Assembly (NCBI GenBank): GCA_002433895.1
Contig: DJJA01000003.1
Coordinates: 175,788-239,787 of the forward strand
Origin: Candidatus Gottesmanbacteria bacterium UBA6580
Lineage (GTDB): Bacteria; Patescibacteriota; Microgenomatia; UBA10105; UBA927
Length of the DNA: 64,000 nt
Reading direction: 5' to 3'
Shown here: piece by piece, positions 5,020 to 57,512 of the stretch
Layout of the letters: each line of letters starts with the position of its first letter
How positions within the stretch are numbered: position 1 is the first letter of the stretch
Notes under the pieces: model-generated
Seen by the model: only the letters and a program-made list of their open reading frames with translations
Database searches by the model: none
Told to the model about the DNA's origin: nothing
Program-made: the position numbers and the translations under genes

Positions 5020-5025
5020 ACGAAA

Positions 5026-5057: not shown

Positions 5058-5072
5058 CAGTGATTGTGTCAC

Positions 5073-15439: not shown

Positions 15440-15443
15440 ATAA

Positions 15444-16153: not shown

Positions 16154-16573
16154 ATGGCAAAACGAAGTGAAATTAAGGAACAACAGGAAAAGTTTATAGC
16201 TGAATTTAAAAGCCTACGCTCGGCCGGTAACGTGTTGGTTGCCTGTCAAACCCTAGGTTATGCGCGTAGCACTGTGTATCATTGGCGAATAATTGATGAG
16301 GGGTTTGCCCACCTTTGGGATGAAACGGTGCTTGATGGATTTGACATACGTGCCGATGAAGCTGAAAACGCCCTACGGTTAGCAATTACCAAAGACCGTA
16401 ATATCACTGCCATTATTTTTACCCTTAAAAACTTACGGCCAGACAGATATAGGGAAAGGTTTGACGTTGAGTATAAAGGTAAGATTGCAAACGAACTAAA
16501 GCAGAACTTTTTAGCTACTTTAAGTAGATTGGGGAAAAATGCTGATGAACAATTACGAAGGAAAAAAATATAG
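16154..16573 (+). CDS. HTH-domain protein (terminase-small-subunit-like or transposase-like HTH)
   Basis: The N-terminus KEQQEKFIAEFKSLRSAGNVLVACQTLGYARSTVYHWR shows the pattern of phage TerS/HTH_Tnp-type helix-turn-helix. It is the only plus-strand gene in a run of minus-strand genes. AAGG is 4 nt upstream of the ATG. Confidence 0.35.
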   Translation: MAKRSEIKEQQEKFIAEFKSLRSAGNVLVACQTLGYARSTVYHWRIIDEGFAHLWDETVLDGFDIRADEAENALRLAITKDRNITAIIFTLKNLRPDRYRERFDVEYKGKIANELKQNFLATLSRLGKNADEQLRRKKI

Positions 16574-16590
16574 CAACGAATATAGGACCC

Positions 16591-18020: not shown

Positions 18021-18021
18021 A

Positions 18022-19251
18022 TTAGTTATTAAATGTTTTAGCTAAAACTGCTTGGGTTAGTTTTGATACCTTTGCTTCCGCGGCCTCAATTTGCTTTTCA
18101 ACTTTATCTGCAAGCTCAAAATAGCTTTTTACCCTTTTTACTATTTCCTTCTGTTCTTCCAGAATTGGAATTTCAATGGGCAAGTTTCTCAAATCCTCCA
18201 AGTTTATCCCTGTATATGCAACTCCCTTCTGTACGTTTGCTAGCCAATATTGTGAAACAGTTGACCCAATATAATATGCGATAAAATCTGGGAAAACTTT
18301 GCTTTTATCTACTGGGACTACTGCTACCTCGCGGGAAACGTTCCATCCCTTCATTTCAGTTGGGACAGCCACGACACCACCTAGCGTTCCACGCACGTTA
18401 ACCAATACCTCACCGCCCATTAGTATCGTCCTTGAGTAACTTGACGATAAAGTAGGTGAAATTCGTTTTAGTCCATTTAATTCAAAATTCAACCATCGGA
18501 CATTACTTGTTCTAAGACACGGAGTCCCATCTTCAATATGTTCTCCCAACTTAATCACACCATAACTTATACCTTTACCTTTTTCGCATAATTCACCCAA
18601 TGCTTTATTTGCCCATACACTATTTAAGTCTTTTATCGTTGACAGCTGTTTCTTCCGCCAATCCTCGGTAAGTTTTCCGGTAATCGCCGCAGTTAAAATT
18701 GCTTGACGAAAATTATTGAGCTGATTTTTAGCACTAGTTAACTTACTAGCAGTTTTATGGATTGAAATAATTTGGTTATTCAGTAAATCGGCAATTTTAT
18801 TTTGAGTTGTTACATCTGGCAACTTTATTGGGATTGTTTTCATTGCAGATTGTGTTAGTTTCAATCTGGTTGTACCTGCAACATAGTCACTAAAATCAAA
18901 ATAATCCAAGTAGTATTTAATAAACCGATTATTTGAAATATCTTTTCTTGCCCTTAAAACGTGTGCGTGATTATTTACCCAACTTTTGCCGTTGATTATG
19001 TACGCGATTGGCTTGGATTTATCCAAAAAGGGGGCGCCATCTTCGCCCAGAAGCACCAATTCCTCATCAAAAATATAATCGTTAATCCAACCTACCTGAC
19101 CTGTTGCTCCATAATAGGGTACCTCACCAATTCTTTTACTTCTGTCATTTGAGTTAATTGGCACCCTTTGGCCATCTAAAATATCAACACAATCTTTAAG
19201 TTGGTATTCCTTCCAACCATTGTTATTTAGTACCGTCTGTGAATTCTGCAT
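18022..19251 (-). CDS. hsdS: Type I restriction-modification specificity subunit HsdS
   Basis: Two target-recognition domains are separated by the conserved central helix (NKIADLLNNQIISIHKTASKLTSAKNQLNNFRQAILTAAITGKL). The C-terminal conserved repeat is present (LEEQKEIVKRVKSYFELADKVEKQIEAAEAKVSKLTQAVLAKTF). Confidence 0.85.
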   Translation of the reverse strand: MQNSQTVLNNNGWKEYQLKDCVDILDGQRVPINSNDRSKRIGEVPYYGATGQVGWINDYIFDEELVLLGEDGAPFLDKSKPIAYIINGKSWVNNHAHVLRARKDISNNRFIKYYLDYFDFSDYVAGTTRLKLTQSAMKTIPIKLPDVTTQNKIADLLNNQIISIHKTASKLTSAKNQLNNFRQAILTAAITGKLTEDWRKKQLSTIKDLNSVWANKALGELCEKGKGISYGVIKLGEHIEDGTPCLRTSNVRWLNFELNGLKRISPTLSSSYSRTILMGGEVLVNVRGTLGGVVAVPTEMKGWNVSREVAVVPVDKSKVFPDFIAYYIGSTVSQYWLANVQKGVAYTGINLEDLRNLPIEIPILEEQKEIVKRVKSYFELADKVEKQIEAAEAKVSKLTQAVLAKTFNN

Positions 19252-20644
19252 ATATTTTTTCCAAGCTATGTGTAGCTTCCTTTAGTTCAGACAGTACGCT
19301 TTTAATAAGTTCTTCAGGTTTGCCAATATCATCACCATTTTCAATATCTTCGTCTTTAATCCACTTAAAACCATCCAACTTGTAATGCTTTTCTTTAACC
19401 TGAGCGATGGTAAACATTTTCCAACGATTTTCTTTGGAGTCAGCTTCTTTACGCGGTGATTGACCATTAGGATTGTCGCCGTAACACTTTTCAAACCCCT
19501 CAAAATGTTTGTGGGTTAGCGGCCTATCTTTAACCGTTATTCCCGGTACATTAGTGCGCGCATCATAAATCCACACGTTTTCCGTGGGTATTCCTTTGGT
19601 AAAAAACACTACGTTGGCTTTAACACCTTGGCTATAAGGGGTAAACGTACCGTTAGGTAAACGTAAAATTGTGTGCAGGTTGCAATCCTGCATCAAAATC
19701 TTAAACACTTCTGCCGCTTGGTCGCCGAAAAGCACGTTGTCGGGCAGTACAACCGCCGCACGGCCTCCCGGTTTAAGGATGGTAAGGATATGTTGCGCGA
19801 AGTTTAGCTGTTTATTGCTTGTTGCAACGGTAAAGTCCTGCCGCTCCGGTACTTGGTTAGCCCCCTTAGTGCCAAATGGCGGGTTTGTCAGTACCACATC
19901 GTACCTGTCACCGCGGTCAGGCTCATAAATGCTGTCGCCTAATCGTATGTTGGAAATAATACCGTGCAGGTATAGGTTCATTAACGCTAACCTGCGTGGC
20001 CTTGCTACTAGCTCCGTGCCATAATAAGTTTTTTCCCTTATACGCTTAATGTCTTCGCGGTTAATTGCACCTTTGCTTTGGTGCATTAACCACTCATAGG
20101 CGCTTAACAAAAATCCACCTGTACCTGCGGCTGGGTCACATATCGTAAAGTCTTTTATTTCCCTTGGGTCGGGTTTCATTACATTGACTATTGCTTGGAT
20201 TAGGACACGGGGAGTGAAGTATTGCCCTGCGCCCTTTTTACCCTCGGCGGCTGATTTTTCTAGTAAACCCTCGTAGGCTTGGGCTTTAACATCAATGTTT
20301 AACCCCGACCAATCAATTTCATCAATAAGGTCAATCAAACGTTTAAGGTTTACTGGTTTGGTGAACTTAGATAGCGCTTCAACAAAAATCGCCCCAAGTA
20401 AACCTTCTTGTCGTGCTAAACCACGCAATAGCTCACTATAAAAATCAATTAACTCAGTGCCAGATTTGGATTTAAGCACTTCCCACGAGTACTTCTTAGG
20501 TATGTCTGCACCCTTTTCCTCCGCCATTTTCAAAAAAAGCAAATAGGTAAGTTGTTCCACATAGTCACCATAATCCATACCGTCGTGCCGGAGTACGTGG
20601 CAGTAACCCCATAATTTGTTAACAATGTTTGTATTAGTTTGCAT
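19223..20644 (-). CDS. hsdM: Type I R-M N6-adenine DNA methyltransferase HsdM
   Basis: LTNPPFGTK (NPPF motif IV), the SAM-binding motif CDPAAGTGGFL, and the HsdM N-terminal domain are present. Confidence 0.9.
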   Translation of the reverse strand: MQTNTNIVNKLWGYCHVLRHDGMDYGDYVEQLTYLLFLKMAEEKGADIPKKYSWEVLKSKSGTELIDFYSELLRGLARQEGLLGAIFVEALSKFTKPVNLKRLIDLIDEIDWSGLNIDVKAQAYEGLLEKSAAEGKKGAGQYFTPRVLIQAIVNVMKPDPREIKDFTICDPAAGTGGFLLSAYEWLMHQSKGAINREDIKRIREKTYYGTELVARPRRLALMNLYLHGIISNIRLGDSIYEPDRGDRYDVVLTNPPFGTKGANQVPERQDFTVATSNKQLNFAQHILTILKPGGRAAVVLPDNVLFGDQAAEVFKILMQDCNLHTILRLPNGTFTPYSQGVKANVVFFTKGIPTENVWIYDARTNVPGITVKDRPLTHKHFEGFEKCYGDNPNGQSPRKEADSKENRWKMFTIAQVKEKHYKLDGFKWIKDEDIENGDDIGKPEELIKSVLSELKEATHSLEKIYAEFTDGTK

Positions 20645-23336
20645 AGGCGTATACCTGTGGCATCGTCGTATTTAATTGGGTAATAAATGGCAACAATCTG
20701 TCGTCAAAATCCGCGTTAATACGCTTAAAACTTCCACCTAAATCTGTAAATATCGGCATTTCATCAAAGTCCTCCTTATCAATGGTTAAGTTTTCAGCCA
20801 AATGTAGTTTTATAAGCTCAATCCATTGTTCCTGTTTTTCATTTAACTTTTGTTTTCCAATAACCTTTTCAACCGCAAGGTCAACCCGTTCTTTGGCTGA
20901 CAATAACGGCTCGTCTTTGGCGGCGTGTTTGACCATTGAAATAATGTCTGCCAAGGGGTATTTATAAGCACGGCGCAAGTTGTCTTCAGTAAATCGCTCA
21001 GGTTGTTTGGATAGTGAGGTGCGCAATTCTGTTAAGGCTTTGGTATTCCACCCTTGGGGCTTACTTAACACAATGCTTATCGCCTCAATATGCTCGGGGT
21101 TATCTTTTACAAACCGCTCAAACTGTTTTAGGTAATCCTCAGGCTTTAGTTCGCGCCCGTCGGTGGTCCTAAAGACAAACTCGGATGTAACTGTGTCTTC
21201 CTGCTCAATCGCCCTTATAAAGCGTTTAGGCGGCCTTGGGTAGTTTTTAAGTAGGTCAATAAAGTTCGGGTCTGTCAGCGTCTTTAATGTGCCAACCCTA
21301 TCCTCACTCAACATATCCGGCAACTTTTTGGCAAACGCGCTTACATCCCCATCGGGTATAAAGTTGGCAAACATTTCCCGCCCTTCAGCGGTGGTATTTT
21401 TAGCAATGCGTTGCAGTCGTTTTACCAAACAGCGTGTGTTGTACTCAACCTCAATGTTGTCGTTTATAGCTTTTATAATTTCTTCAATACTTCTTGTTGG
21501 GTTGGTTGGTGTTACTTGGGTTATACCAGTGCTATTCTTAAATGCCTCAAGCAATGTTCCATCAAAACAATCAAACACGGTAAAGTGTGTTTTTGGCGGT
21601 GTTCCTAAACCGTTAGGGAAGTTTGTGCAAAGACGTGTACCGCGCCCAAGCATTTGCTCAAATAAGATACGGGACTTAACCGGCCGTAAAAACACGATGT
21701 TTTCAATTGAGGGTACATCAATACCGGTTGATAACATATCAACGGTAACTGCAATATGCGGTTCAGGTCTATTCCTAAACTCCTTTATGCGGGTTAATGG
21801 CCTATCCACGGTTGGTGAACCGGTAATTTTCTGTACAAAGGCATCCCCTCGGCCAAATGTATCGCGGCAAATATCAACTAACTGGTCGGCGTGTGAAGTA
21901 TGAGCTAAATCGTTATCAGCAAATATAAGCGTTTTGGGAAACCGGCCAAACTCCTTTTCCTGTTCCAAGGCATACTTAGCAAACTCCTGTATGATTTTGC
22001 GGTTGCTGTCTGGTGCTGTAATATCCCGTTCAACGTCAGCCACATCAAAATGTCGTTCGTCCTCCAATAAATCAAGTTGTTGTGCGCCGGTTTGTGTATC
22101 AACCTGTTCAACTTCCTCGCCTTCTTTTAGGGTAATGCCTTGTATGCGTACACCTGATGCTATCTTTACCGCGTCATAATCAACCAAATATCCATCTTGC
22201 ACAGCCCGCTCATAAGTGTAGCGGTATGCAATTTCCTTAAAGTAACTGGTGGTGTGGGCGGCAGGTGTAGCAGTTAAGCCTATCTTTGTGGCGTCAAAGT
22301 GGTCCAATACTCCGCGCCATTTACTTACTTCGTGGCTTGTATAACCCCTGTGGCACTCATCAGCAATAATCGTGTCAAACGCGTTAATCGGCATTTCAAT
22401 TTTGTCTGCATCATCATCTGGGTCGTAGTCGCCGCTATAACTAAACATACCCTCACGGCCATACAGGTTTATTTGCATCCGTTGGATGGTTGAAATATAC
22501 ACAAACACTTGGTTACCGTCAGGGTCAGTTAAATAGCCTGTGGGAATGACATTAAAATCAACCTTTTCATTGGCCTCAAAATCGTCTACCTTAAAACGTT
22601 GGCTATACACTTGGTAAATCTGGTTAAACTTTAGGCCGTTTTCGGCTTCATACGCGGCAAACTCCATTACTGCTTGGGCGGCAAGGGCTTTTCTGTCAAC
22701 CAAAAACAAAACGCGCTTACTAACACCGGACTTTAGCAGGCGGTAAACTAACGAGGCAATTGTGTAGGTTTTACCCGTACCGGTTGCCATAGCAATCAGC
22801 ATTGACCGTTTATTTTCAGTAATGTTTTTTTCAATCGCTGTTATAGCCTCACGTTGGTAGTGGCGGAGCTTACTATTGTTCGGTGGATTGGCAGTAAACC
22901 AACGTGCGTTACTTTGCGTGTCGCTAGTTAGGTACTCAATTAACGCTTTAGGCGTATGGAACTCCTGTACTTGGCGTGAGCGGCTTGGGGTAATGCGCAA
23001 ATCCTCATACCAAATAACTTCACCATTAGTGGAGTAAATAAACGGGACTGTTAAACCTTGTTGTTGTGCACCTTTAACATAACGATGGGCTTGCTGTAAG
23101 ACGTTTTGCGGACCAAGGCTTATCTTTTTTGCCTCAACAAACGCAATTAACTTACCATTTGCAAATAAGGCATAATCCGCCGGTCCGGTAGTGGTCATAT
23201 ATTCGGTAACCGCTACCTTATGCAAGGTTGAAGTATCCATCCCCTCCTTATAGGGGATTATCTTATCCCAACCAGCCTTTTTTAATTTATCGTCAATCCA
23301 CTTTTTACGAGTGGCTTGCTCGTCAATAATATCCAT
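20634..23336 (-). CDS. hsdR: Type I R-M restriction endonuclease/helicase subunit HsdR
   Basis: 900 aa. The N-terminal nuclease domain is followed by SF2 helicase motifs (MATGTGKTYT Walker A, DECHRG DEAH box). Confidence 0.9.
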   Translation of the reverse strand: MDIIDEQATRKKWIDDKLKKAGWDKIIPYKEGMDTSTLHKVAVTEYMTTTGPADYALFANGKLIAFVEAKKISLGPQNVLQQAHRYVKGAQQQGLTVPFIYSTNGEVIWYEDLRITPSRSRQVQEFHTPKALIEYLTSDTQSNARWFTANPPNNSKLRHYQREAITAIEKNITENKRSMLIAMATGTGKTYTIASLVYRLLKSGVSKRVLFLVDRKALAAQAVMEFAAYEAENGLKFNQIYQVYSQRFKVDDFEANEKVDFNVIPTGYLTDPDGNQVFVYISTIQRMQINLYGREGMFSYSGDYDPDDDADKIEMPINAFDTIIADECHRGYTSHEVSKWRGVLDHFDATKIGLTATPAAHTTSYFKEIAYRYTYERAVQDGYLVDYDAVKIASGVRIQGITLKEGEEVEQVDTQTGAQQLDLLEDERHFDVADVERDITAPDSNRKIIQEFAKYALEQEKEFGRFPKTLIFADNDLAHTSHADQLVDICRDTFGRGDAFVQKITGSPTVDRPLTRIKEFRNRPEPHIAVTVDMLSTGIDVPSIENIVFLRPVKSRILFEQMLGRGTRLCTNFPNGLGTPPKTHFTVFDCFDGTLLEAFKNSTGITQVTPTNPTRSIEEIIKAINDNIEVEYNTRCLVKRLQRIAKNTTAEGREMFANFIPDGDVSAFAKKLPDMLSEDRVGTLKTLTDPNFIDLLKNYPRPPKRFIRAIEQEDTVTSEFVFRTTDGRELKPEDYLKQFERFVKDNPEHIEAISIVLSKPQGWNTKALTELRTSLSKQPERFTEDNLRRAYKYPLADIISMVKHAAKDEPLLSAKERVDLAVEKVIGKQKLNEKQEQWIELIKLHLAENLTIDKEDFDEMPIFTDLGGSFKRINADFDDRLLPFITQLNTTMPQVYAYAN

Positions 23337-23350
23337 ACTTATTTTTATCT

Positions 23351-23548
23351 TTACTTTTTATTCTTATTTTCCTCAATGTAACGCTCAATGTCTTCCAATT
23401 TATAGCGCCTATCACCGACACCCCTGCGTGAACCAATACGGATGGAGGGCAATCGTCCTTCATTATCCCAGCGCCTTAATGTTTCGGGGTTTACGCCTAA
23501 AATATCAGCGGCTTGTTTAATTCTTAGTAGTTTAACGACCGGTTTCAT
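23351..23548 (-). CDS. Excisionase/MerR-family HTH DNA-binding protein
   Basis: LRIKQAADILGVNPETLRRWDNEGRLPSIRIG is typical of Xis/HTH_17 proteins. It ends 14 nt before the hsdR start. Confidence 0.6.
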   Translation of the reverse strand: MKPVVKLLRIKQAADILGVNPETLRRWDNEGRLPSIRIGSRRGVGDRRYKLEDIERYIEENKNKK

Positions 23549-23629
23549 AACTTACACATAATTATACATCGTCAGGCTTGTTTTTGCTCCTCCAAAATTC
23601 ACTTTTACTCCAGTAGACTGTCCTTCACT

Positions 23630-23827
23630 ATGAACTACAGGGATTTGATGGCGGAAGCACGGGCGATACATTTTGCTATGCACCACGGTAGCATTACCTA
23701 TGAGGAAGCACAGGTAAAAGTTAAGCCGGTTTTGGAAATACTAAATAGGAAGAATGCCAAGATAGCGAAAAGACACGGAGTAACCCCACGGAAGTTTACA
23801 TTCCAAAGCCTAGGACGAACTTTTTAG
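23630..23827 (+). CDS. Small hypothetical protein (65 aa)
   Basis: ORF only; divergent from the excisionase-like gene. Confidence 0.3.
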   Translation: MNYRDLMAEARAIHFAMHHGSITYEEAQVKVKPVLEILNRKNAKIAKRHGVTPRKFTFQSLGRTF

Positions 23828-24036
23828 AAAAACGTACTTAGGGATGTTTTTAATGCTTTGGCAATTTTTTCCAGCACCTCAAGGGATGGTGTGTACCTGC
23901 CTTGCTCAATATACCCCATATAAACACGACTGACATTAACTTTATCGGCTAAATCATTTTGGGTTAATCCGCACACCTTCCGCCTTTTTTGGATTTTTTT
24001 ACCTAGCACTTTTGGCAATCTGGCATTTTTCCGCAT
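23824..24036 (-). CDS. XRE-family HTH transcriptional regulator
   Basis: LTQNDLADKVNVSRVYMGYIEQGRYTPSLEVLEKIAKAL is a classic Cro/C1 HTH. ORF 23824..24072; the likely start is MRKN at 24036. Confidence 0.65.
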   Translation of the reverse strand: MRKNARLPKVLGKKIQKRRKVCGLTQNDLADKVNVSRVYMGYIEQGRYTPSLEVLEKIAKALKTSLSTFF

Positions 24037-24162
24037 ATTGTAATTGTGGAAAACGCATCGTCCATAATCCACTAAGCCAGACTAAGCATTTAGCCTTAAA
24101 AAGGGCTTGTTTTTATGCTAAGCATCATTTAGCATTATCTTATTGAGGCAAGGAGGTGAAAT

Positions 24163-24450
24163 ATGGACGTATTACTTAAAACAAGGTGTACCAAAGGCCA
24201 CTTAATCGTTTACGCAGATAAGGTTGCAATTGAAGCGCTTAAGCTACTTGGTTATCAACAATCAAACGCACTCGCCTACAAACAGATTACGGGAGTGGAA
24301 GTAAAAATGACCCAACCGGACATACTCGGCTTAGGACAAGCTACGGTAACTATCCATAGCGCTGGTGGCCAAACACTTATAGCTGACAGGGTAAAACTTA
24401 AGGATGCTAAGGAAGTTGAAAAACTAATCCAGGAACGAATTGCCAAATAA
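24163..24450 (+). CDS. Hypothetical protein (95 aa)
   Basis: ORF with RBS ggaggtg. No recognised domain. Confidence 0.35.
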   Translation: MDVLLKTRCTKGHLIVYADKVAIEALKLLGYQQSNALAYKQITGVEVKMTQPDILGLGQATVTIHSAGGQTLIADRVKLKDAKEVEKLIQERIAK

Positions 24451-24525
24451 TAGTGCGTAAATAAGCTCCATTCAATCGTATTCTTCGTCCGTTTTTCTTA
24501 TAATTGTCTTAATAAGGATAAAAAT

Positions 24526-25317
24526 ATGGATAAAAATGACCCTATCATTAGGGCGGAACTTGAGGAAATAAAAAATTGGCTAATAAAAAGTAGCGAGGTT
24601 GAAGTGGATGAAAAACAGGAATTGGTTGTTTCCATCGTTGCTTTAATTACAAACAAGCGGTTTCAACAAAACATACGACAATTACGGAAAAAATACCAAA
24701 TACCAAAGACTTGGTATACGACTGAAAAACAAAATGATTTATATGCTGAATACTTAAAACACTGCAAGGCACACCCCGACGCACCTACGATGCCGTACGA
24801 TGAACCAATTGTGAACCTGTGTAAAAGAATAGGCGTAGACGTAAAAAAGTACTCCGATTTTGTATTGGGCTATTTATACTACGGCTACGTTTTACCGCTT
24901 AAACCCGACCAAGTTGATTGGTATCAGCCGCTTTTTACAAAGGACGAGCATCGTTACAAAGCAAATATTGAGTTAGATTATGGGGACAGCACTGAGGAAA
25001 AGGAAGAAATGGAAATTAAAAAAGGCTATATACGATTTTACGGCGACACTACCCCCAATCAACTTACCCGCTTCATTAAGGATAATTGGCGGGGCATACA
25101 AGCTATCCAGTCACAACTTAAACCTTATCAGCACACGAAAAAACATAGTCAATTTAGGCGTGACATACTTATATATTTATTTCATTTGTTTGGGAATAAA
25201 TCGCCTGAAATAATGGATAAGATAGTCACAGACGAATTGAATTATCCCCTAGATTATGTTGAGGTACGGCAAATAATAAGTGATTTGAAAAATCGGATAA
25301 ACAAAATCCTTCCATAG
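24526..25317 (+). CDS. Hypothetical protein (263 aa)
   Basis: Long ORF in the island regulatory/replication module. No recognised domain. Confidence 0.4.
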   Translation: MDKNDPIIRAELEEIKNWLIKSSEVEVDEKQELVVSIVALITNKRFQQNIRQLRKKYQIPKTWYTTEKQNDLYAEYLKHCKAHPDAPTMPYDEPIVNLCKRIGVDVKKYSDFVLGYLYYGYVLPLKPDQVDWYQPLFTKDEHRYKANIELDYGDSTEEKEEMEIKKGYIRFYGDTTPNQLTRFIKDNWRGIQAIQSQLKPYQHTKKHSQFRRDILIYLFHLFGNKSPEIMDKIVTDELNYPLDYVEVRQIISDLKNRINKILP

Positions 25318-25536
25318 CTTCAGGTGTGAGTAAAACTCGTTAGGTTTTTCTTTATATTTTCCCCTCCATAAATCCGATACTGATGGTGTAAATCAGTATG
25401 GATAAACAGATAAACATCACCAATAAAGATAACAACATAACGCAAGCCGCAGAACAGTGGTTTAACCTTGCCCTAATGTTGATAAAGATTAAACGCCAAC
25501 AAAAGATGGCGCAATTAAAGATAAAGAATAACGACT

Positions 25537-25776
25537 ATGAGCACAGATAAAACTTTTCAAACTGATAACTTCTTATTAGCTACTTTCCTACTTAGTCAGT
25601 CGTGCAACCTCATTTCCATTGACCGCAGTAATGTTCGCCGTATGGTGTTTGCGTTTGAAAATAACTCCCGCCGAAAAACTTTAACTGAAGATTTTATGGC
25701 TTATAAAAGCGCCATTGAGCCACATAGGTTCTTTAGTGCACAGAAGGATTTACGCGCACTAATCCACCAAAGATAG
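25537..25776 (+). CDS. DUF5659-family small protein (common in phages/integrative elements)
   Basis: FQTDNFLLATFLLSQSCNLISIDRSNVRRMVFAFENN matches the DUF5659 N-terminal pattern (F.t.d..LA.fL...g..L..IDr.dp.r.vF.Fe). Confidence 0.45.
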   Translation: MSTDKTFQTDNFLLATFLLSQSCNLISIDRSNVRRMVFAFENNSRRKTLTEDFMAYKSAIEPHRFFSAQKDLRALIHQR

Positions 25777-25810
25777 GTTCAATCCAGTTGAATTAAAGAT
25801 AAAGATAAAA

Positions 25811-26242
25811 ATGAAAAATTACACGAAGATACCAAATGAAATATTAACTCAATCGCAACTTACCATACCAGCTAGGTACTTATACTGCGCATTGCTAAAG
25901 TATTGTGGCAATGACGATAAGTGTTTTCCAAGTCAGCAGACTTTAGGAAAAGACCTTGGAAGGACACCGCGATACGTTAGGGAATTACTAGGGGAACTTA
26001 TAAGCGCCGGTTTGGTTTATAAAAAAAGGCTGGGTTACAACAGGGCAAATACTTATACGGTATCCAAAGACTTAAAGACATACTGGAACCACGGTTCCTA
26101 TCATATCGGTACAGTATTTCCCCTCCATCAAGGAAATACAGTGCCAGATAAAAGTACTTATATAAAAGGAAAAGGTAAAAGGAGTATTAAGGGTTTGGAA
26201 AAAATGCGAAAAGCGTTAATTGAACAAAGGATTATTAAATAG
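25811..26242 (+). CDS. HTH_36-type winged-helix protein (replication-initiator/phage-regulator-like)
   Basis: IPARYLYCALLKYCGNDDKCFPSQQTLGKDLGRTPRYVRELLGELISAGLV is typical of PF13730. Confidence 0.5.
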   Translation: MKNYTKIPNEILTQSQLTIPARYLYCALLKYCGNDDKCFPSQQTLGKDLGRTPRYVRELLGELISAGLVYKKRLGYNRANTYTVSKDLKTYWNHGSYHIGTVFPLHQGNTVPDKSTYIKGKGKRSIKGLEKMRKALIEQRIIK

Positions 26243-26349
26243 GAGTTTACTTTTTATAAACGACTATTTACTATTGAATAATTAAGTATAATTAAATGTA
26301 ATACTATGAGGCAAGATATAAATTATAAATTATCCAACAAGGAGGAAAT

Positions 26350-27852
26350 ATGAAGGACGAAGTATATGTTTATATAAGGGTTTCAACGTCGGAGCAGGCA
26401 GACGAGGGGTTTTCTATTGATAACCAAAAACGAGCCTGTAAGGAGTTTTGCGAGGCACGAGGTTACCACATAAAGCGGATGTTTGTTGAGGATGGGCGAA
26501 GCGCTAGGACTACCGAAAGACCCGCTTTACAGGAAATGCTCAAGGCCTTGGTAGATACGCCAGTTGGCGCAATTGTTATTTATAAGATTGATAGATTTGC
26601 CCGTAACGTAACCGACTTTTCAAGGCTTTATAACGAGTTTAAGACAAAGGGAATACAGCTCATATCAGTAAGCGAGGGCAACTTAAGCGAGGGGACAAGT
26701 TTAGTGCCAAACATTTTTGCCAGTGTTGCGCAATGGGAGAGCGAAGTTAATAGTCAACGAACACGCGATGCGTTAATGCAAAAGTTTAGGGAAGGCTGGC
26801 AACCAACCCCACCCCCTATTGGGTATAGGAGTGTTGGCGCTGACAGGGAACGAAAAACTTGTGAACCAGACCCATACACTGCACCGATAATACGGGAGCT
26901 ATTTGAGCTATATTCAACCGGCAACTACTCAATTTATGAGTTACAAAATTGGTTAGCCGAACGGGATATTGTTAGTAAAACTGGCACACCCATAGGTCAC
27001 AGTGTAATTGGAACAATACTTAATAATCGGTTTTATTATGGTTGGATTAGCTGGCACGGTGAGGGGAAAACGGGCAAACATATGCCAATTATTAGTAAGG
27101 ACTTATTTGATACGTGCCAATATGTATTAGCAAAACACCGTAACTTCCTAACACGTAATCGCATTCACCAGTTTTTACTCCGCGGGTTCGTACACTGTGC
27201 TGAGTGTGGCCAACGATATACCGCGGAGTGGCATTTTAAGCCTAGATTTACTAAACGAAACGGCAAGATTGCTTATTACCATTGCCCCAAGATGAACCGC
27301 AATGGTTGCCCTGCGCCATACGTGGAGGTGGGTGATCTTGAAAAGTTGGTATTCGACACTGTAAAAGGTGTGCAATTTAGCCAAGATTTTATTGATGCTG
27401 TGGTTGATAAAGCGCGTAGATTTGTTGATGACAGTAGGAAGCGTGCAGGTGGCGATATGCAAGCGTGTATTAACCAGCGCACTGCACTTGAGTTTAAGCG
27501 CAACAAACTTGAAGACGCCTTACTAGATAACACGATTGACCGTACTGTTTTTAAGCGCAAGCACGATGAAATTGAAGCGCAGATTAGGTTAATTGACGAC
27601 CGAACACGCGAGATTGAAGCACAAAGTCACGTTGACATTAAACTTGTTGAGGACGTGCTTAACTTTACCCGCGATGTAGGCAGAACATACGACGAAGCGC
27701 CTGACTTTTTGAAACGACATTTTTTACGCTTCTTTTTTGAAAAGATAATGGTAAAAGATAAGAAGATAGCGGAAGTTATTTACACACCAATAATAGCGCC
27801 GTTAGTGGCAAACCACTCGGTTATAATAAAAAACCTTATGCTCCCCCGGTAG
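26350..27852 (+). CDS. Large serine recombinase (integrase)
   Basis: Resolvase catalytic domain (VYVYIRVSTSEQADEGFSIDNQ...IYKIDRFARN), recombinase domain, and a Zn-ribbon (CAECGQRYTAEWH...YYHCPKMNRNGC). 500 aa. The last 12 nt overlap the tRNA-Asn 3' end on the opposite strand. Confidence 0.9.
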   Translation: MKDEVYVYIRVSTSEQADEGFSIDNQKRACKEFCEARGYHIKRMFVEDGRSARTTERPALQEMLKALVDTPVGAIVIYKIDRFARNVTDFSRLYNEFKTKGIQLISVSEGNLSEGTSLVPNIFASVAQWESEVNSQRTRDALMQKFREGWQPTPPPIGYRSVGADRERKTCEPDPYTAPIIRELFELYSTGNYSIYELQNWLAERDIVSKTGTPIGHSVIGTILNNRFYYGWISWHGEGKTGKHMPIISKDLFDTCQYVLAKHRNFLTRNRIHQFLLRGFVHCAECGQRYTAEWHFKPRFTKRNGKIAYYHCPKMNRNGCPAPYVEVGDLEKLVFDTVKGVQFSQDFIDAVVDKARRFVDDSRKRAGGDMQACINQRTALEFKRNKLEDALLDNTIDRTVFKRKHDEIEAQIRLIDDRTREIEAQSHVDIKLVEDVLNFTRDVGRTYDEAPDFLKRHFLRFFFEKIMVKDKKIAEVIYTPIIAPLVANHSVIIKNLMLPR

Positions 27853-27912
27853 GATTCGAACCTACAACCGTCTTCTTAACAGGAAGCTGCGCTACCGTTG
27901 CGCCACAGGGGA
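27841..27912 (-). tRNA. tRNA-Asn (anticodon GTT)
   Basis: Folded by eye. Acceptor TCCCCTG/CGGGGGA (one G-U), D-arm GCGC-AACGGTA-GCGC, anticodon loop CTGTTAA (GTT), T-arm GTAGG-TTCGAAT-CCTAC, discriminator G. CCA is not encoded. Confidence 0.75.
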
Positions 27913-50536: not shown

Positions 50537-50814
50537 AAAGAGTAGTCAGTAAGGATAAGAGGAACGCTGTGACCATCTCCGGTTCGTATTGTTGATGCGA
50601 TGCGGGAAAGGAATTCAGCGACTGTGCCGCAACGGTGATCCGCCTGCAGAGGTGGAAAGTCCGGAACTCCCCCTTACGTTGTATCCCGAGCAGGAGTGTT
50701 ATGAAAAAAATATACAGCGCCCCTTTTATTGCCGTGTTTTTCCCCGTGGATACTATTGGTTATTTTTTTTACGGTCATTTTCCGCAGACCGTATTACCGC
50801 GTAGGTAACCATAT

Positions 50815-52809
50815 ATGGAAAAAATTTTCATGCCGCATCAGTACGCAAAAAAATACGCTTCCGACCATGAGGGCAAAGACGCGGTTATCAACCGGATGAG
50901 AAGAGCACGTAAAGTCGACGAAATTATCGAAGATGCCAGGGCGGCGCAAAAACCGGAATGGCGGGGAGATCATAGCTTCAGTTCTGACGCAGCGCGATAT
51001 TCACTTACGCATTTCGTTGAGCCGGAAGTTGCCCGCGAGCACCCAGACTGGACGACATCACAGATTAAAGAACACGCCAAAGAGCGTTTTGAGAAGCGCC
51101 TGGCGCAGGATTTATCGTATGAACACCGGGAAACAGTACACGAGGAGTCACAAGTGCATTGGCGTCCGGTGCAAACAGAGAACGGGTGGGAACTGGCAAC
51201 GGAGTACGGTGACAAACTGGTGACGCTTAATGAACTGTGGGATCACACAAAAGAATACGCAGCATTCGTGGGAAATGTCGCAGCATACAATCCCGAAGAA
51301 CACCGTGCACAGTTGGCAATGCAGGACGCGCTTATCAATGATGGATCACGGGGTTTTGTCAGTGTGTTGTCGCATCCTGATGCGGTGAGGTACGTACAGA
51401 TTTGGCAAAAGTCAGAAAATGGCGATATCCAATCCCGTCATGTGGATTTATTCGCGACAACGGGTAGGGACTTTTCGCCCCAGGAAGCGGCAGAACTTAT
51501 ATCTCATCTTGCTGATTATCACGGTGAAACAGACCGTATACCGCAGGGAACAAGCGAAGGTTCATACGCGCACTTTTTTGTAAGTCACGGTTATATTGAG
51601 GAAGGGGACGTGAGGACATTTGCGATTGCACAGACTATTCGTGTTGATGCCGCAGAATTTACGGGCGATGATGGCCGGAATATTCGCTCCTCCCATCTCA
51701 TCGGTGCGGTAGCGCGGGATACAAAAGATGCGGTGTTGTCGTTCGGCGCGTATATCCACGAACAGATACAGGAAAAAATACAATCCATGAGGCTCGGTAT
51801 AACGGAGCGTCCGGAAAAGAATGTGCCTCATCAAAGCGCTAAAGCGCGGAAAAAATATATACAGAGAAAACATACAGAGACTGCCTTTACGGCGGGGATA
51901 GCCCCCGAAATGAACGTATCCATAAACAAAGCGGCCGAATTTACCGGCATGAAATCGGTTCTTTCCGAGTGGTGGATATCCCGTACTATCGTGGCGTTTG
52001 TTCCACATGTGCCGGTGGCAGCACCGGCTGCCGTGTACTGGTTTGCGGAATTTTCCGGCGCACATGAAATTAAAAAACATGCTGATGGAGCGCCCACGGC
52101 TGAAAACGGAGTACAACGTGATGTGGCCAAGCGGGGAGCGCCAGCACGGGATATATTAACAGTGTGGAAAGCCTTGGTATCAAAAATATATACATTTCGT
52201 ATAACACCGGAGAAGAGGAAGAAGGATATTGTCTCTCAAACAAATAAACAGGAAAAGGTTGCTGAACAAAAATTACGTCCGCGTGAACGTCGTATTGAAG
52301 TGCCGCATGTGGATGATAAGACAGATCAACGGTTCGCGTTGGTGTACGAGGTAGCGCGTGTATGTTCCCAACTTTTCGGTAATGATGATGGAAGAAGGAA
52401 GCGCAAAGATATTGCGGTGGCGGTGCGCCGAGGGCAACCGCGGCAGAGTGAAGCATTGAGGAGCAGTGAAGCAGCAATAGCGTCGTTGGTTGGCCGATTT
52501 TTGTTTGCTGCCAGTATATGGGAACTATGCCGTATTCCGTTTCACGCAATAACCGGCGCGCATCGCCCTGATGAAAAAAGTAATGTGCCGCTTGCCCAAA
52601 GAGAACAGCACGACGCGAAAATCGTTGAAGACGAGACTACTTCGTTTCCGTGGATTCTCCTCTCTATTATTTGGCATCTTACTCTCATGCGCGAGGCCGC
52701 GCTTACTGCTCCTACGCAACAACAGCGCCAGCGGACACAAGTGAAAGGAAAAAATACGCCGTTACCTCAGCAAGGCGTAATATTTACGTATCACTTCGTG
52801 ATAGAATAA
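50815..52809 (+). CDS. Large hypothetical protein (664 aa), no recognised domains
   Basis: Long ORF with many overlapping antisense ORFs, which is typical of a real gene. It lies immediately upstream of the T4CP-like ATPase with 5-nt and 16-nt gaps. Confidence 0.4.
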   Translation: MEKIFMPHQYAKKYASDHEGKDAVINRMRRARKVDEIIEDARAAQKPEWRGDHSFSSDAARYSLTHFVEPEVAREHPDWTTSQIKEHAKERFEKRLAQDLSYEHRETVHEESQVHWRPVQTENGWELATEYGDKLVTLNELWDHTKEYAAFVGNVAAYNPEEHRAQLAMQDALINDGSRGFVSVLSHPDAVRYVQIWQKSENGDIQSRHVDLFATTGRDFSPQEAAELISHLADYHGETDRIPQGTSEGSYAHFFVSHGYIEEGDVRTFAIAQTIRVDAAEFTGDDGRNIRSSHLIGAVARDTKDAVLSFGAYIHEQIQEKIQSMRLGITERPEKNVPHQSAKARKKYIQRKHTETAFTAGIAPEMNVSINKAAEFTGMKSVLSEWWISRTIVAFVPHVPVAAPAAVYWFAEFSGAHEIKKHADGAPTAENGVQRDVAKRGAPARDILTVWKALVSKIYTFRITPEKRKKDIVSQTNKQEKVAEQKLRPRERRIEVPHVDDKTDQRFALVYEVARVCSQLFGNDDGRRKRKDIAVAVRRGQPRQSEALRSSEAAIASLVGRFLFAASIWELCRIPFHAITGAHRPDEKSNVPLAQREQHDAKIVEDETTSFPWILLSIIWHLTLMREAALTAPTQQQRQRTQVKGKNTPLPQQGVIFTYHFVIE

Positions 52810-52813
52810 TTAT

Positions 52814-53263
52814 ATGGATAACCTGCCTACTACAGCGCCATCTCCAATAACTCCTCCGTCCGCCGCGGCTGCGCCTTTGCAGCAGGCAGCTACGGGTAGT
52901 ATGGCAAAAGAAGCAGCACCCATAGTAACAACGCCGGAAGCCCCGGTGGTTACTGAAATCGGTAAGGAAGTAACGCTTCCTCCCGAAGTGGCAAGTGCCG
53001 GTGTCAGGATGCAATCCGATACAGTAGTGCTTCCGAAACCTTTGCAGGATTTGGGGGTGACTGCTGTCGGACCGGCCGCAAAAGCGCCCGCACACACTCC
53101 AACGGTGGTGTTACCGCTTAATGACGATCAGATTGCGATGGGTCTACATCAAAGCCTGTTAACTTCTTGGCGGTGGCTTGCGGAGTGGTGTAATAGACAG
53201 TTGCGGTCGGTTCATCTGACACTAAAAACGGTGCACGGTAAAATAGTCCGGGCGGAAGCCTGA
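52814..53263 (+). CDS. Pro/Ala/Thr-rich hypothetical protein (149 aa)
   Basis: Low-complexity N-terminus (PSPITPPSAAAAPLQQAATG... TTPEAPVVTE). Confidence 0.35.
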   Translation: MDNLPTTAPSPITPPSAAAAPLQQAATGSMAKEAAPIVTTPEAPVVTEIGKEVTLPPEVASAGVRMQSDTVVLPKPLQDLGVTAVGPAAKAPAHTPTVVLPLNDDQIAMGLHQSLLTSWRWLAEWCNRQLRSVHLTLKTVHGKIVRAEA

Positions 53264-53278
53264 TGCATTTATATACGT

Positions 53279-55627
53279 ATGCCTGTAGAAACAGCAGATA
53301 TTCTTTACCAATTACAAGTCTTGGGTGTTGCCCTGCTTATCCTGACATTTTGTCTTTTGGGGTTTGCTGTTTTGGGATATGCCCTGTTTATCCTGTGGAA
53401 GTACAGGGACCGGGAAAAGCACTCCATGGAATATGTGCTGCTTCAGGTGGCAACCCCCCGGGACAATGAAATAAAAATTGACGCGGCAGAACAGGTGTTC
53501 GCTAGTTTGCATGCGATGTATCACGGGGGATTTTGGTCATTCTTGAAACCACAGGAGCATATTTCATTTGAAATAGTCGCGAAGCTCGAGGATATACGTT
53601 TTTATATTGCCGCACCGAAACACGCGGTTGATTCGGTTGAAAAACAAATTCACGGGTCATACCCGGGGGCGGATATAAAAATTGTTGATGAATACAATAT
53701 TTTTAATGAAAACGGCAAAGTGGCATTTGCCGCGCTTGCACCCAAGAATTCGGATTATTTACCTATCCGAATATACCGGGATCTTCCGATTGATCCATTG
53801 TCATCGTTAACATCCGTACTCGCGAAAATGTCCGAAGGTGAGGGTGCCGCGGTGCAAATACTCGTGCAGCCAACTGGTGGTAAGTGGGCAGGATTGGGTC
53901 GCTCATACATATCAAAAACTAAGAAAAACGAGGCTAATCCAGAAAAAGCGAGCTTTAAAGTTGATCAAAAAACACTCGAAGCTATTGAGCAAAAAGTAAG
54001 TAAACCTGGGTTTAATACCGTTATCCGTATTGTGGTAAGTGCGAAGACCAAAGAAGCTGCTGATGCTCATTTGGAAAATATAATAACGGCATTCCACCAA
54101 TTTTCTTCGGATCACAACCATTTTTCAAAAGTGAAACATCCGATGCGGAAGTTTTTTATGATTGATTTTATTTACCGGTATTTCCCGATGGTAAATTTGC
54201 CGTTTTTTAAACAGTATGGAGTATTAAATAGTGATGAACTCGCGACGTTATTCCATTTGCCCAATAAATCCATAGAAACACCGCATATCTATTGGCTCAA
54301 CGCAAAGCGGGCGCCCGCACCGATGCAGATTGCAACGAGCGGCCTTTATATCGGAGTATCGCGGTACAGAGGCGTGGATAGATCCATATTTATTGGCGAC
54401 GACGATAGGCGCCGGCATCTTTACATCATCGGAAAAACCGGTACCGGTAAATCACAATTGCTGGAAGAGCTTGTCATTCAGGATGTGAAAGCGGGGAAGG
54501 GTTTAGCAGTTATCGATCCGCACGGAGATTTAATTGACGGAATTCTCGCGCGTATTCCGGCAGAGCGGGCAGAAGACGTGATTTATTTTGATCCCTCGGA
54601 CGGTGAGCGCCCTATGGGGCTGAACATGTTGGAGGCACAAACCGAAGAGCAAAAACATTTTGTGGTTACCTCCATCGTGGGGCTTATGTATAAGCTGTAT
54701 GATCCACAGAAAACGGGTATTATCGGCCCCCGGTTTGAACACGCGGTCAGAAACGCAATGTTGACGGTGATGAGTGAACCGGGTAGCACGTTTATCGAGG
54801 TGGTGCGTATCCTGACTGACGCAAATTTTGTGCAGGAGTTACTACCCAAAGTGCAGGATCCGATTATCCGTCGGTATTGGACTGATCAGATCGCGCAGAC
54901 CGCCGACTTTCATAAATCAGAAGTGTTGGATTATATCGTTTCCAAATTCGGCAGGTTCGTTACCAACAAACTGATGCGAAATATCATAGGGCAGTCCGAA
55001 TCGAGTTTTAATTTCCGCAAGGTAATGGACGAAGGGAAAATATTACTTGTGAACTTATCAAAAGGGAAACTCGGTGAGGAAAACAGTAATTTCCTTGGTT
55101 TGATTTTGGTACCCCGTATCCTGATCGCGGCAATGAGCAGGCAGGATATTCCGGAGTCCCAGCGGCGGGATTTTTATCTCTATGTCGACGAGTTCCAAAA
55201 TTTTGCTACCCCAGATTTCGCACAAATACTTTCTGAGGCGCGGAAATACCGCCTGAGCTTAACAGTCGCAAACCAATTTATCGGTCAAATGGAAGAAGAA
55301 GTGAAAAACGCAGTGTTCGGAAATGTCGGAACACTTATTACTTTCCGTGTGGGAGTAACCGACGCAAATTATTTGCAGCATGAATATAGTCCGACGTTTA
55401 ATGAAATCGACCTTATCAATATAGATAAATATAACGCTTACGTAAAAACGATTGTGCATAACGAGCCAGTGAAGCCATTTTCGGTAGATATGGCAAAAGA
55501 TATGAGTGTGGTTATGGCAGAACGTAACGCTGAAGTAGCGAAAGCAATTATACAGTTATCCCGCCTCAAATACGGACAGGCGCGTGAGTTAATCGAAGCG
55601 GAAATTCAGCAGCGCGCGAGATTATAA
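53279..55627 (+). CDS. VirD4/TraG/TraD-like type IV coupling protein family ATPase (DUF87/TraM-recognition-domain-like) with N-terminal TM helices
   Basis: Two N-terminal TMs. Walker A YIIGKTGTGKSQLL followed by AVIDPHGDL (the DPKG-like motif of T4CP/VirB4/HerA ATPases). Walker B LYVDEFQNF. 782 aa. Confidence 0.6.
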   Translation: MPVETADILYQLQVLGVALLILTFCLLGFAVLGYALFILWKYRDREKHSMEYVLLQVATPRDNEIKIDAAEQVFASLHAMYHGGFWSFLKPQEHISFEIVAKLEDIRFYIAAPKHAVDSVEKQIHGSYPGADIKIVDEYNIFNENGKVAFAALAPKNSDYLPIRIYRDLPIDPLSSLTSVLAKMSEGEGAAVQILVQPTGGKWAGLGRSYISKTKKNEANPEKASFKVDQKTLEAIEQKVSKPGFNTVIRIVVSAKTKEAADAHLENIITAFHQFSSDHNHFSKVKHPMRKFFMIDFIYRYFPMVNLPFFKQYGVLNSDELATLFHLPNKSIETPHIYWLNAKRAPAPMQIATSGLYIGVSRYRGVDRSIFIGDDDRRRHLYIIGKTGTGKSQLLEELVIQDVKAGKGLAVIDPHGDLIDGILARIPAERAEDVIYFDPSDGERPMGLNMLEAQTEEQKHFVVTSIVGLMYKLYDPQKTGIIGPRFEHAVRNAMLTVMSEPGSTFIEVVRILTDANFVQELLPKVQDPIIRRYWTDQIAQTADFHKSEVLDYIVSKFGRFVTNKLMRNIIGQSESSFNFRKVMDEGKILLVNLSKGKLGEENSNFLGLILVPRILIAAMSRQDIPESQRRDFYLYVDEFQNFATPDFAQILSEARKYRLSLTVANQFIGQMEEEVKNAVFGNVGTLITFRVGVTDANYLQHEYSPTFNEIDLINIDKYNAYVKTIVHNEPVKPFSVDMAKDMSVVMAERNAEVAKAIIQLSRLKYGQARELIEAEIQQRARL

Positions 55628-55800: not shown

Positions 55801-57201
55801 ATGAATGGATTAGCGAGTGAGTTGGCGTCCGAAAAAAAACATAATGTATTGGTCTACATCTTTAATATGTCGGAAGATGTATGGCCGTTTATTTGCGCCA
55901 TGTCAGACGCAAATGCAAAAAGCGCGGAGATAGTCGAGAATGGCTACCTGGGAGACTCACGGATGTTTCAGTTTGCTGGAGAAAAAGACGAAGTCCTCTA
56001 TATCACTCCTCAGGCAGTAAGTGCGCAATTTTTGGATTATTTCCATACGCTGTTTCCCGATACGCATCTTACGGTTGTTACCACAGGGCAACACAGCGGA
56101 GTAATATGTGAAGACATTCAGCATGATCCGTCCATAATGAATGTGCTCATTGAAGCGGCAAATTCCACAAAAAAATTGACGATGACGAGTTATAGCGCCA
56201 GTCAGCCGTTTTTACACCTTGTTCGCGCGTTGCGGGACCGAGGACTGACGATCGCAACCCCGGAGGCGCCGGACGAAGAAGACGCGTGGACGGTGAATTT
56301 TTTCGGGAGTAAATCCGGTATCCGGCAACTGGCGCAGCAAAGCGGACACGAAGAACCGGATTTTAAAATGGCAGATGGCGTGATTTGTTTCGGTATAGAA
56401 GACGCATCAAAAATAGCGGCAATTAGATACGTGAAAGAACAAGGAGTAGTTATCAAAACAAACAAGGGTCACTCCGGAATGGGAGTTGAGATTTTTAGAC
56501 CCGGCGATTTGCCAACGGAGTTTAACGAGTGCCAGAAGAAAATTTTTGACATGCTGAACAAAGACGCGTATTGGCAGCAGTTTCCGATCATTATAGAGAA
56601 ACTTATTCCGGTCAGTATGAGTGTAGCAGGAGGAAATCCGAATGTGGAATTTAAAATTTCCCGTAATGGTCATATAGATTTTTTGTATCAATGTGGAGTG
56701 TTGGTCGATAAAGACGGCGCGTTTCATGGTATAGAGGTGGGGCACGATATTATGCCGGAACGGGTAGCAGCACAAATCAAAGATACAGGGTTTTATATAG
56801 CAGAACGGTTTGCTGCCGCGGGATATCGAGGATATTTTGACGTGGATTGTGTGGCAGGAAGAAACGGCGAAGTATATGTTGCTGAGAGTAACGTGCGGAG
56901 CACGGGCGGAACGTTTGTCTACATGACCGCCGTCGCGTTGTTTGGTGAAAATTTTATGTTTGACACATATCTTTTTTCAAACAACGGATACATGATACCG
57001 CATCTCAAGCATATGACATTCCCTAAATTGCTGGAGCGTCTGTCACCCATACTGTTTAGTAAAGAAACCAAAGAAGGACTAGTACTCACATCGGAAAATC
57101 TGTTGCGTATGCAGAAATTCTCTTTTATTATTTTTGCCAAGACCAAAAAGCGCTCCATGGAAATTGAAGCCCGCATGATAGAGCTCCTCAACAGACAGTA
57201 A
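55801..57201 (+). CDS. ATP-grasp domain protein
   Basis: Glycine-rich loop VVIKTNKGHSGMGV. C-terminal E.N catalytic region (VAESNVRSTGG). Confidence 0.5.
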   Translation: MNGLASELASEKKHNVLVYIFNMSEDVWPFICAMSDANAKSAEIVENGYLGDSRMFQFAGEKDEVLYITPQAVSAQFLDYFHTLFPDTHLTVVTTGQHSGVICEDIQHDPSIMNVLIEAANSTKKLTMTSYSASQPFLHLVRALRDRGLTIATPEAPDEEDAWTVNFFGSKSGIRQLAQQSGHEEPDFKMADGVICFGIEDASKIAAIRYVKEQGVVIKTNKGHSGMGVEIFRPGDLPTEFNECQKKIFDMLNKDAYWQQFPIIIEKLIPVSMSVAGGNPNVEFKISRNGHIDFLYQCGVLVDKDGAFHGIEVGHDIMPERVAAQIKDTGFYIAERFAAAGYRGYFDVDCVAGRNGEVYVAESNVRSTGGTFVYMTAVALFGENFMFDTYLFSNNGYMIPHLKHMTFPKLLERLSPILFSKETKEGLVLTSENLLRMQKFSFIIFAKTKKRSMEIEARMIELLNRQ

Positions 57202-57440: not shown

Positions 57441-57512
57441 GGGCCAGTAGCTCAGTGGCAGAGCGCTATCCTTATAAGATAGATGTCCTTGGTCCGATCC
57501 CAAGCTGGCCCA
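57441..57512 (+). tRNA. tRNA-Ile (anticodon TAT; AUA-decoding), intact copy B nested between the halves of copy A
   Basis: Acceptor GGGCCAG/CTGGCCC, D-arm GCTC-AGTGGCA-GAGC, anticodon stem CTATC/GATAG with loop CTTATAA, T-arm CTTGG-TCCGATC-CCAAG, discriminator A. It is flanked by a 10-bp inverted repeat: cgggtacgaa at 57411-57419 and ttcgtacccg at 57523-57532. Confidence 0.7.

Follow-up and report, generated by a model that had tools for sequence, protein, structure and literature searches.

Much of bacterial diversity belongs to the Patescibacteria, whose epibiotic lifestyle relies on envelope machines that are poorly understood. Here we describe a three-gene locus of Candidatus Gottesmanbacteria bacterium UBA6580, lying in a 64,000-nucleotide (nt) stretch of contig DJJA01000003.1 that was analysed as a whole and is referred to below as the window. 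The three genes run in the same direction on the forward strand and encode a 664-amino-acid (aa) clade-specific accessory protein (50815-52809), a 149-aa partner protein (52814-53263) and a 782-aa membrane-anchored ATPase of the type IV coupling protein (T4CP) superfamily, belonging to the DUF8128 family (53279-55627). A previous sequence-only reading of this DNA had described the same layout in a small-genome host, and both points stand, the host being a small-genome Patescibacterium; the intergenic gaps, put there at 5-16 nt, measure 4 and 15 nt. The three genes are real, since up to 33 independent assemblies, of which some measure 1.1-1.2 Mb, encode exactly the same three proteins, and since nearly identical proteins from their 90% clusters carry NCBI annotation (MCL4199969-71, "Patescibacteria group bacterium"). 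What was observed of the locus, its open reading frames (ORFs) and motifs, is confirmed, while its interpretation as a translocation module or part of a conjugation-like system is partly supported.

The ATPase gave a good AlphaFold2 (AF2) model (pLDDT 84.8), and its domains follow one another clearly on the forward strand. At the N-terminus lies a single long hydrophobic helix at aa 8-40 (53300-53398; Kyte-Doolittle 2.84 over 19 residues, AF2 helix 3-43); the membrane anchor proposed earlier is therefore present, but as one transmembrane (TM) helix rather than several. The rest of the protein is probably cytoplasmic, because the basic stretch KYRDREKH comes after this helix. Then follows the DUF8128 domain (aa ~50-345; 53426-54313), an alpha/beta region of about 290 aa in which the order of AF2 secondary-structure elements gives two beta-alpha-beta-beta-alpha-beta (ferredoxin-like) units. 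Precomputed Pfam matches place this domain (PF26449) N-terminal to the P-loop domain in the exact window protein and in 240 of the 240 homologues listed. It has no match in the PDB by sequence, and our literature search found no paper on DUF8128. The RecA-like nucleotide-binding domain (NBD; aa 350-782, 54326-55624) carries the Walker A motif GKTGTGKS (aa 385-392; 54431-54454), the IDPHGDL motif (aa 412-418, with the IDPHGD strand at 54512-54532) and the Walker B motif DEFQNF (aa 637-642; 55187-55204), all three as previously read, together with an ANQ motif (55265-55288). Lys391 of Walker A, Asp637 and Glu638 of Walker B and the ANQ motif are all invariant. Within the NBD, the AF2 model shows a helical insert (aa 456-584; 54644-55030) that resembles an all-alpha domain.

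Pfam gave weak matches, above the gathering thresholds, to TrwB_AAD_bind, TraG-D_C, T4SS-DNA_transf and the HerA central domain. When a 37-sequence family profile was compared with PDB sequences, DotL (1e-6) and TrwB (4e-6) ranked first. These matches, this ranking and the AF2 architecture place the ATPase in the T4CP/VirB4/HerA branch, with the sequence evidence favouring T4CP. The best sequence and structure matches are TrwB of R388, VirD4, Cag-beta and DotL, with which it shares an N-terminal membrane anchor and a RecA-like NBD with GxTGxGKS, a Walker B of the DE type and a (V/I)DPxGD strand; the helical insert of the AF2 model may correspond to theirs. The NBD is thus of the FtsK-HerA type with Walker A and Walker B, as expected of a T4CP, yet where a T4CP has a two-helix TM domain directly before the NBD, one helix and then DUF8128 are found. 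The protein falls below all NCBIfam equivalog thresholds (TraD, VirD4-like, TrbC); its best T4CP match, TIGR03743, reaches 53.5 bits against a cut-off of 366, and the others are also far below their cut-offs. It has neither the VirB4 N-terminal domain with a C-terminal ATPase (TIGR00929) nor the PF01580 motor with alpha, beta and gamma domains and multi-TM N-terminus of FtsK/SpoIIIE. With the latter it shares the ATPase superfamily, a membrane anchor and housekeeping-level conservation, but its NBD is structurally nearer to TrwB than to FtsK, without a gamma-like domain. The T4CP/TraG-like assignment of the sequence-only reading is therefore borne out, and the grouping with FtsK/SpoIIIE that would have spoken against it was not seen in the Pfam, PDB profile or structural comparisons.

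The small protein encoded directly upstream is a dedicated companion of this ATPase. Its N-half is rich in Pro, Ala, Val and Thr and disordered, Pro and Ala making up 34% of the first 99 residues, in agreement with its earlier description as Pro/Ala-rich. Its C-terminal part contains a conserved motif, LPLNDDQIAMGLHQSLLTSWRWLAEWCNRQLRS (53111-53209, forward strand), which was recognised in the family alignment as a Trp-rich amphipathic and basic helix with the family pattern LPL-x3-QI-x2-GL-x-S-x3-S-x-RWLAEWC-x-R-x2-K. An iterative hidden Markov model (HMM) search over all 7,252 ORFs (40 aa or longer) from about 75 species loci, with ~1.3 Mb of flanks, returned 39 matches. Small same-strand ORFs ending immediately upstream of the ATPase account for 34 of them, two are in-frame fusions with the ATPase (loci L066 and L068 of our set), two adjoin contig-truncated ATPase genes and one lies one gene away from the ATPase; this search found no partner homologue elsewhere in the flanks. 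In both fusions ~15 residues separate the Trp-rich helix from DUF8128, so that this helix occupies the position of the TM helix, and neither lineage has a TM helix. This replacement argues for a physical association of partner and ATPase; by the fusion layout, it is at the membrane-proximal end of the ATPase that the partner helix would act. The protein had been called unique; in fact, it belongs to a family specifically linked to the ATPase across many lineages. In many further loci the ORF upstream is small and of low complexity and has a similar Trp/basic helix at its end; it lies below statistical detection and resembles the partner at motif level only.

The ATPase itself is widespread. 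The first query returned more than 7,900 homologues, the 120th best still being 77% identical, and a further 4,254 matches were obtained around distant family members; at least 600 species-representative genome loci carry the gene at 41-80% identity. These include Gottesman-, Levy-, Roizman-, Woese-, Curtiss-, Davies-, Shapiro- and Collierbacteria (Microgenomates), as well as Dojkabacteria, WWE3 and Doudnabacteria-type genomes. Taxon labels of metagenome-assembled genomes (MAGs) are unreliable here, as many clear Patescibacteria stand in public records as "uncultured Gammaproteobacteria", "Pseudomonadales", "Bathyarchaeia" or "Limisphaerales". One Patescibacteria MAG (L078) holds two tandem ATPase paralogues (1128-3587 and 3587-6163), one of 819 aa with 44% identity to the window ATPase and one of 858 aa with 35%.

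When the window proteins were compared with those of seven clade relatives, identity was 78-81% for the ATPase, 72-80% for the ribonucleotide reductase (RNR) NrdJ and 61-64% for TsaD, falling to 39-54% for the partner and 25-36% for the 664-aa protein. The conservation of the ATPase equals that of NrdJ and NrdR and exceeds that of TsaD, NUDIX and PduO among these relatives, and by this comparison of sequences its purifying selection is as strong as that on ribonucleotide reductase. The upstream NrdR-NrdJ-PduO synteny is kept (NrdR in 13 loci, NrdJ in 18 and PduO in 20), and in all clade relatives the locus lies between PduO and the ATP-grasp/NUDIX/TsaD genes. Its GC content is similar to that of its flanks. 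A Pfam scan of the 30 larger ORFs of the window, about one third of those of at least 120 aa, recovered two class A penicillin-binding proteins, superoxide dismutase, aldehyde dehydrogenase, NrdR, the B12-dependent NrdJ, the PduO adenosyltransferase, TsaD, NUDIX, VanW and a type I restriction-modification (R-M) island; the scanned ORFs around the locus are chromosomal housekeeping genes. Neither relaxase, VirB4 nor pilin was found among these 30 ORFs, and a six-frame search of the whole window gave no homologue of Replic_Relax, in line with the absence of such genes remarked on before. The wide distribution, the NrdJ-level identity and the conserved synteny show that the ATPase gene is a vertically inherited core gene and not a mobile element. 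The locus is chromosomal and vertically inherited across Patescibacteria, and the idea of an unrecognised conjugation-like system has to be given up: it is neither a mobile module nor a cryptic conjugative element, and a false lead is thereby removed.

The 664-aa protein behaves differently from its two neighbours. In its AF2 model an N-domain (aa ~50-285; 50947-51669) is confidently folded as alpha/beta (pLDDT above 90) and contains many invariant polar residues, whereas the C-half (51682-52806) is charged, disordered in parts, and shows by hydropathy three helices of weak hydrophobicity (51988-52044, 52474-52530 and 52645-52704), all on the forward strand. As had been noticed, no recognisable domain is present: Pfam, PHROGs and PADLOC gave no match, NCBIfam gave one sub-threshold match (uridine kinase, 15.7 bits against a cut-off of 180), and the PDB gave no match to any known fold. 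The suggestion that it could be a novel relaxase failed, since no relaxase domain or fold of the HUH MOB families, MOBC/Replic_Relax or MOBT/Rep_trans is recognisable in the product of 50815-52809; the protein is not a relaxase. Its family counts 322 representatives at E<=1e-3 among 1.84 billion proteins and is limited to Gottesmanbacteria-like genomes, so that of the two upstream proteins called unique, this one is at least clade-confined. Its gene immediately precedes those of the partner and the ATPase in all cases examined, and its sequence changes rapidly, with 25-36% identity between genomes whose ATPases are ~80% identical. This constant adjacency within the clade suggests a functional tie to the ATPase, and a role as substrate or adaptor is possible. 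Because other lineages hold unrelated genes in the same slot, we regard it as a clade-specific accessory, which may act as adaptor, regulator or cargo.

Two other relationships of this protein were considered and rejected. A polymorphic N-domain seemed indicated by the sharing of the C-half only in a profile search, but pairwise clustering groups 158 of 163 N-termini together, and therefore divergence and not domain swapping accounts for it. Homology with the proteins of the same slot in Levybacteria was given an hhalign probability of 0.1%. In those Levybacteria-like loci the slot upstream of the partner is filled by 290-480-aa proteins with Cys-rich, zinc-ribbon-like C-termini (L019 411-1556, L021 8325-9452, L033 7753-9201 and L036 8425-9303); the L019 and L021 proteins are clearly related to each other, and none of the four is related to the 664-aa family.

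Searches of PHROGs and with tblastn revealed full-length homologues of the ATPase in Bacillus phages, namely SPO1 gp27.4, CP-51 gp91, 0305phi8-36 orf201 and those of PBC5-like phages. The ATPase matches phrog_5156 at E 2e-92, and the alignment of its family profile with SPO1 gp27.4 by hhalign (99.9% probability, E 4.5e-32, 703 columns) begins at the first DUF8128 strand, aa 51, so that DUF8128 is conserved in the phage homologue along with the NBD. Identity with the window protein is ~21%. In SPO1, CP-51 and 0305phi8-36 (L090 3809-7346, L093 3791-7352 and L092 3950-7193, respectively) the gene of an actin-like partition protein precedes the ATPase homologue, and a gene annotated "replication initiation by nicking" comes directly after it. 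The nicking proteins of SPO1 and 0305phi8-36 match Pfam Replic_Relax, a MOBC-type relaxase family, the latter with 23.6 bits, just below the gathering score of 25.3. This arrangement has been interpreted as a relaxase/coupling-ATPase "DNA translocation operon" dispensable in the laboratory (Pathria et al. 2012; PMC3357382). The presence of full-length homologues beside a MOBC-type relaxase points to DNA as the ancestral substrate. The phage proteins differ in having no TM helix and no small partner, whereas the window ATPase is TM-anchored and its gene is preceded by that of the partner; moreover, no Replic_Relax relaxase was found beside the ATPase in the Patescibacteria loci searched. In phage vB_BceS-M2 the gene upstream of the ATPase homologue encodes a 148-aa hydrophobic, probably membrane, protein (L091 3388-3834). 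More distant, NBD-only relatives of 412-456 aa, lacking both TM helix and DUF8128, occur on IMG/VR contigs (L094-L103) and are 34-45% identical to aa ~357-780 of the ATPase; one of these contigs (L097) has a weak Replic_Relax-like match on the reverse strand (9294-10496).

Taken together, we think it probable that the core unit is a vertically inherited two-gene module of Patescibacteria, composed of an exapted T4CP and its partner, with DNA or a DNA-protein complex as the most likely substrate. The module is probably derived from a relaxase-coupled DNA translocase, and its most likely role is to translocate DNA or nucleoprotein at the membrane, or to act there as an adaptor. By analogy with TrwB and VirD4, the ATPase would form a ring of six subunits at the cytoplasmic side of the membrane, where ATP hydrolysis would drive the movement of a polymer. 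The Trp-rich C-terminal helix of the partner may dock at the membrane-proximal N-terminus of the ATPase, its flexible N-half serving as a tether or adaptor. The order within the family is a TM or partner helix, followed by DUF8128 and by the NBD with its helical insert. Common ancestry with the coupling ATPase of the Bacillus phage relaxase-translocase operon makes DNA or a DNA-protein complex the most likely substrate; in Patescibacteria, the ATPase gene may have parted from the relaxase gene beside it and turned into a core gene of the chromosome under strong constraint. Several observations weigh against this proposal. No Replic_Relax was found near any of 80 Patescibacteria loci, so that DNA as substrate is extrapolated from phage relatives at the ~21% identity given above. 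In addition, the partner family is statistically detected in only about half of the loci (at least 36 of ~75). Finally, canonical T4CPs have two TM helices and no domain such as the ~290-aa DUF8128 between anchor and NBD, and the ATPase differs from them in both respects, as well as in being a vertically inherited core chromosomal gene with no relaxase or type IV secretion system (T4SS) neighbours found.

Orphan T4CP homologues in Patescibacteria are already known. Across 2,918 Patescibacteria genomes, Quinonero-Coronel et al. (2025) counted 5,713 VirD4-type homologues; virB4 is close by in just 148 cases, and the authors proposed exaptation (PMC12102498). These chromosomal and widespread genes, far from virB4, are probably the same as our ATPase family, but they were not subdivided there, and DUF8128, the small partner, the fusions, the 664-aa protein and the phage link are not described in that study; nor did we come across an account elsewhere of the partner or of a connection between this family and phages. 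Thus, one orphan T4CP homologue can now be singled out by its RNR-level conservation, a dedicated small partner that is fused to it in some lineages, the DUF8128 domain and an ancestry in common with a phage relaxase-coupled translocase.

The ATPase could instead be the missing coupling protein of the essential Patescibacteria T4SS encoded elsewhere (near dnaA), recruiting protein or DNA cargo, possibly the 664-aa protein, to the VirB4/VirB6 channel for delivery into the host cell. We judge this unlikely. It is true that Patescibacteria T4SS clusters carry no coupling protein and no relaxase of their own (PMC10633639; PMC12102498), that most genomes have T4CP homologues and that the NBD is of the T4CP type with a predicted helical insert; small partners regulating a T4CP are also known, such as CagZ with Cag-beta (PDB 8dol), and in its rapid evolution and partial disorder the 664-aa protein resembles many effectors. 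Yet linkage to virB4 is found neither in the window nor in the literature (the 148 of 5,713 cited above), the T4SS components are divergent where the ATPase is extremely conserved, and the 664-aa protein, being present in one clade only, cannot be a general cargo. Moreover, in S. epibionticum a T4CP homologue is non-essential while the T4SS is essential (PMC12102498).

The transposon sequencing (Tn-seq) tables of Southlakia (Wang et al. 2023; PMC10633639) list two T4CP-like genes outside the T4SS cluster, of which SEML1_0142 is essential and SEML1_0293 non-essential in S. epibionticum. SEML1_0141, an unannotatable ORF of 139 aa located 12 nt upstream of SEML1_0142, is essential as well (PMC10633639). 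This pair mirrors our partner and ATPase in layout, and the N-terminal region of the T4CP-like SEML1_0142 is similar in length to that of the window ATPase. SEML1_0293, on the other hand, bears the same PGAP name as the ATPase family and has collinear Pfam matches. Both are longer than the 782-aa window protein, at 1019 and 921 aa, respectively. A bolder proposal, which we consider doubtful, is that the partner and ATPase constitute a Patescibacteria-wide essential membrane machine orthologous to SEML1_0141/0142, that is a new translocation system built from a phage or plasmid relaxase-coupling module, either energising the T4SS, which has neither relaxase nor coupling protein and on which these episymbionts depend for life on their hosts, or importing or exporting DNA by itself, with clade-specific accessories such as the 664-aa protein as adaptors or cargo. 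The partner and ATPase offer a concrete two-protein unit open to genetics and biochemistry in culturable Saccharibacteria.

Less likely still is a septal DNA pump of the FtsK/SftA type, handling the chromosome at division with a Xer recombinase and the divisome. In 36 species loci (within L008-L076, for example L015 12482-13351 and L027 12456-13316), the ATPase gene is followed at a distance of 0-3.7 kb by a convergent gene for a Xer-like tyrosine recombinase of ~288 aa (Phage_integrase with SAM_1), and a divergently transcribed DivIC/FtsB gene lies downstream in 26. This adjacency is a weak hint at a division-related role, to which the housekeeping-level conservation, the membrane anchor and the DNA-translocase superfamily of the ATPase may be added. 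Nevertheless, neither neighbour occurs in the clade of the window or in the most distant lineages, and their adjacency may be inherited gene order, since the upstream RNR genes are syntenic too, though in fewer loci (13-20). Southlakia, the one Patescibacterium with Tn-seq data, carries a canonical essential FtsK with a gamma domain (SEML1_0096; PMC10633639), and the TrwB-like NBD described above also disagrees with such a pump. A search for canonical FtsK in the flanks gave no match but is uninformative.

Hardly credible, and largely refuted by synteny and conservation, is the reading in which an integrated mobile element left the ATPase behind or carries it as cargo, or in which the ATPase serves anti-phage defence in the manner of HerA, DndH or Mads: the PADLOC matches (mad8 at 1e-15, HerA, PbeA and DndH), the phrog_5156 match, the NBD-only IMG/VR relatives and a defence and integration island elsewhere in the window could be cited for it, but all PADLOC matches are limited to the generic P-loop domain, no nuclease, Sir2 or methylase partner is present, the position from PduO to ATP-grasp/NUDIX/TsaD is the same in all clade relatives, the GC content is like that of the flanks, and the conservation is very strong, unlike that of defence or mobile-element genes.

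The surroundings of the locus deserve a brief description. Directly downstream of the ATPase lies the gene of a 466-aa pre-ATP-grasp/ATP-grasp-like protein (55801-57201), followed by a tRNA gene (57441-57512). The 466-aa gene is kept at this place in most Gottesmanbacteria-like relatives (L009-L012, L087 and L088) and is not there in L007 or L008. On the other side, between PduO and the 664-aa gene, clade relatives have DUF4430 and DUF6580 genes (L087 110-1046; L088 7065-7995), whose products may be B12-binding and similar to the S-component of energy-coupling factor (ECF) transporters. At this position the window strain has a gap of 278 nt (50537-50814) with only a 71-aa ORF starting with TTG (50589-50804), which suggests that genes of a B12 uptake/RNR cluster were recently deleted here or have decayed. 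No riboswitch or other RNA was found in this gap, Rfam at gathering thresholds giving only two tRNAs in the window, and promoter and terminator scans gave no signal above the shuffled expectation.

Far upstream, a low-GC island extends over 14000-27912 (GC 0.37-0.40, against 0.45-0.50 elsewhere in the window). It encodes the type I R-M system HsdS (18022-19251), HsdM (19223-20644) and HsdR (20634-23336) and a SMODS-domain protein (17181-18020), all on the reverse strand, together with a large serine recombinase on the forward strand (26350-27852) that abuts a reverse-strand tRNA gene (27841-27912); this is probably an integrated defence island.

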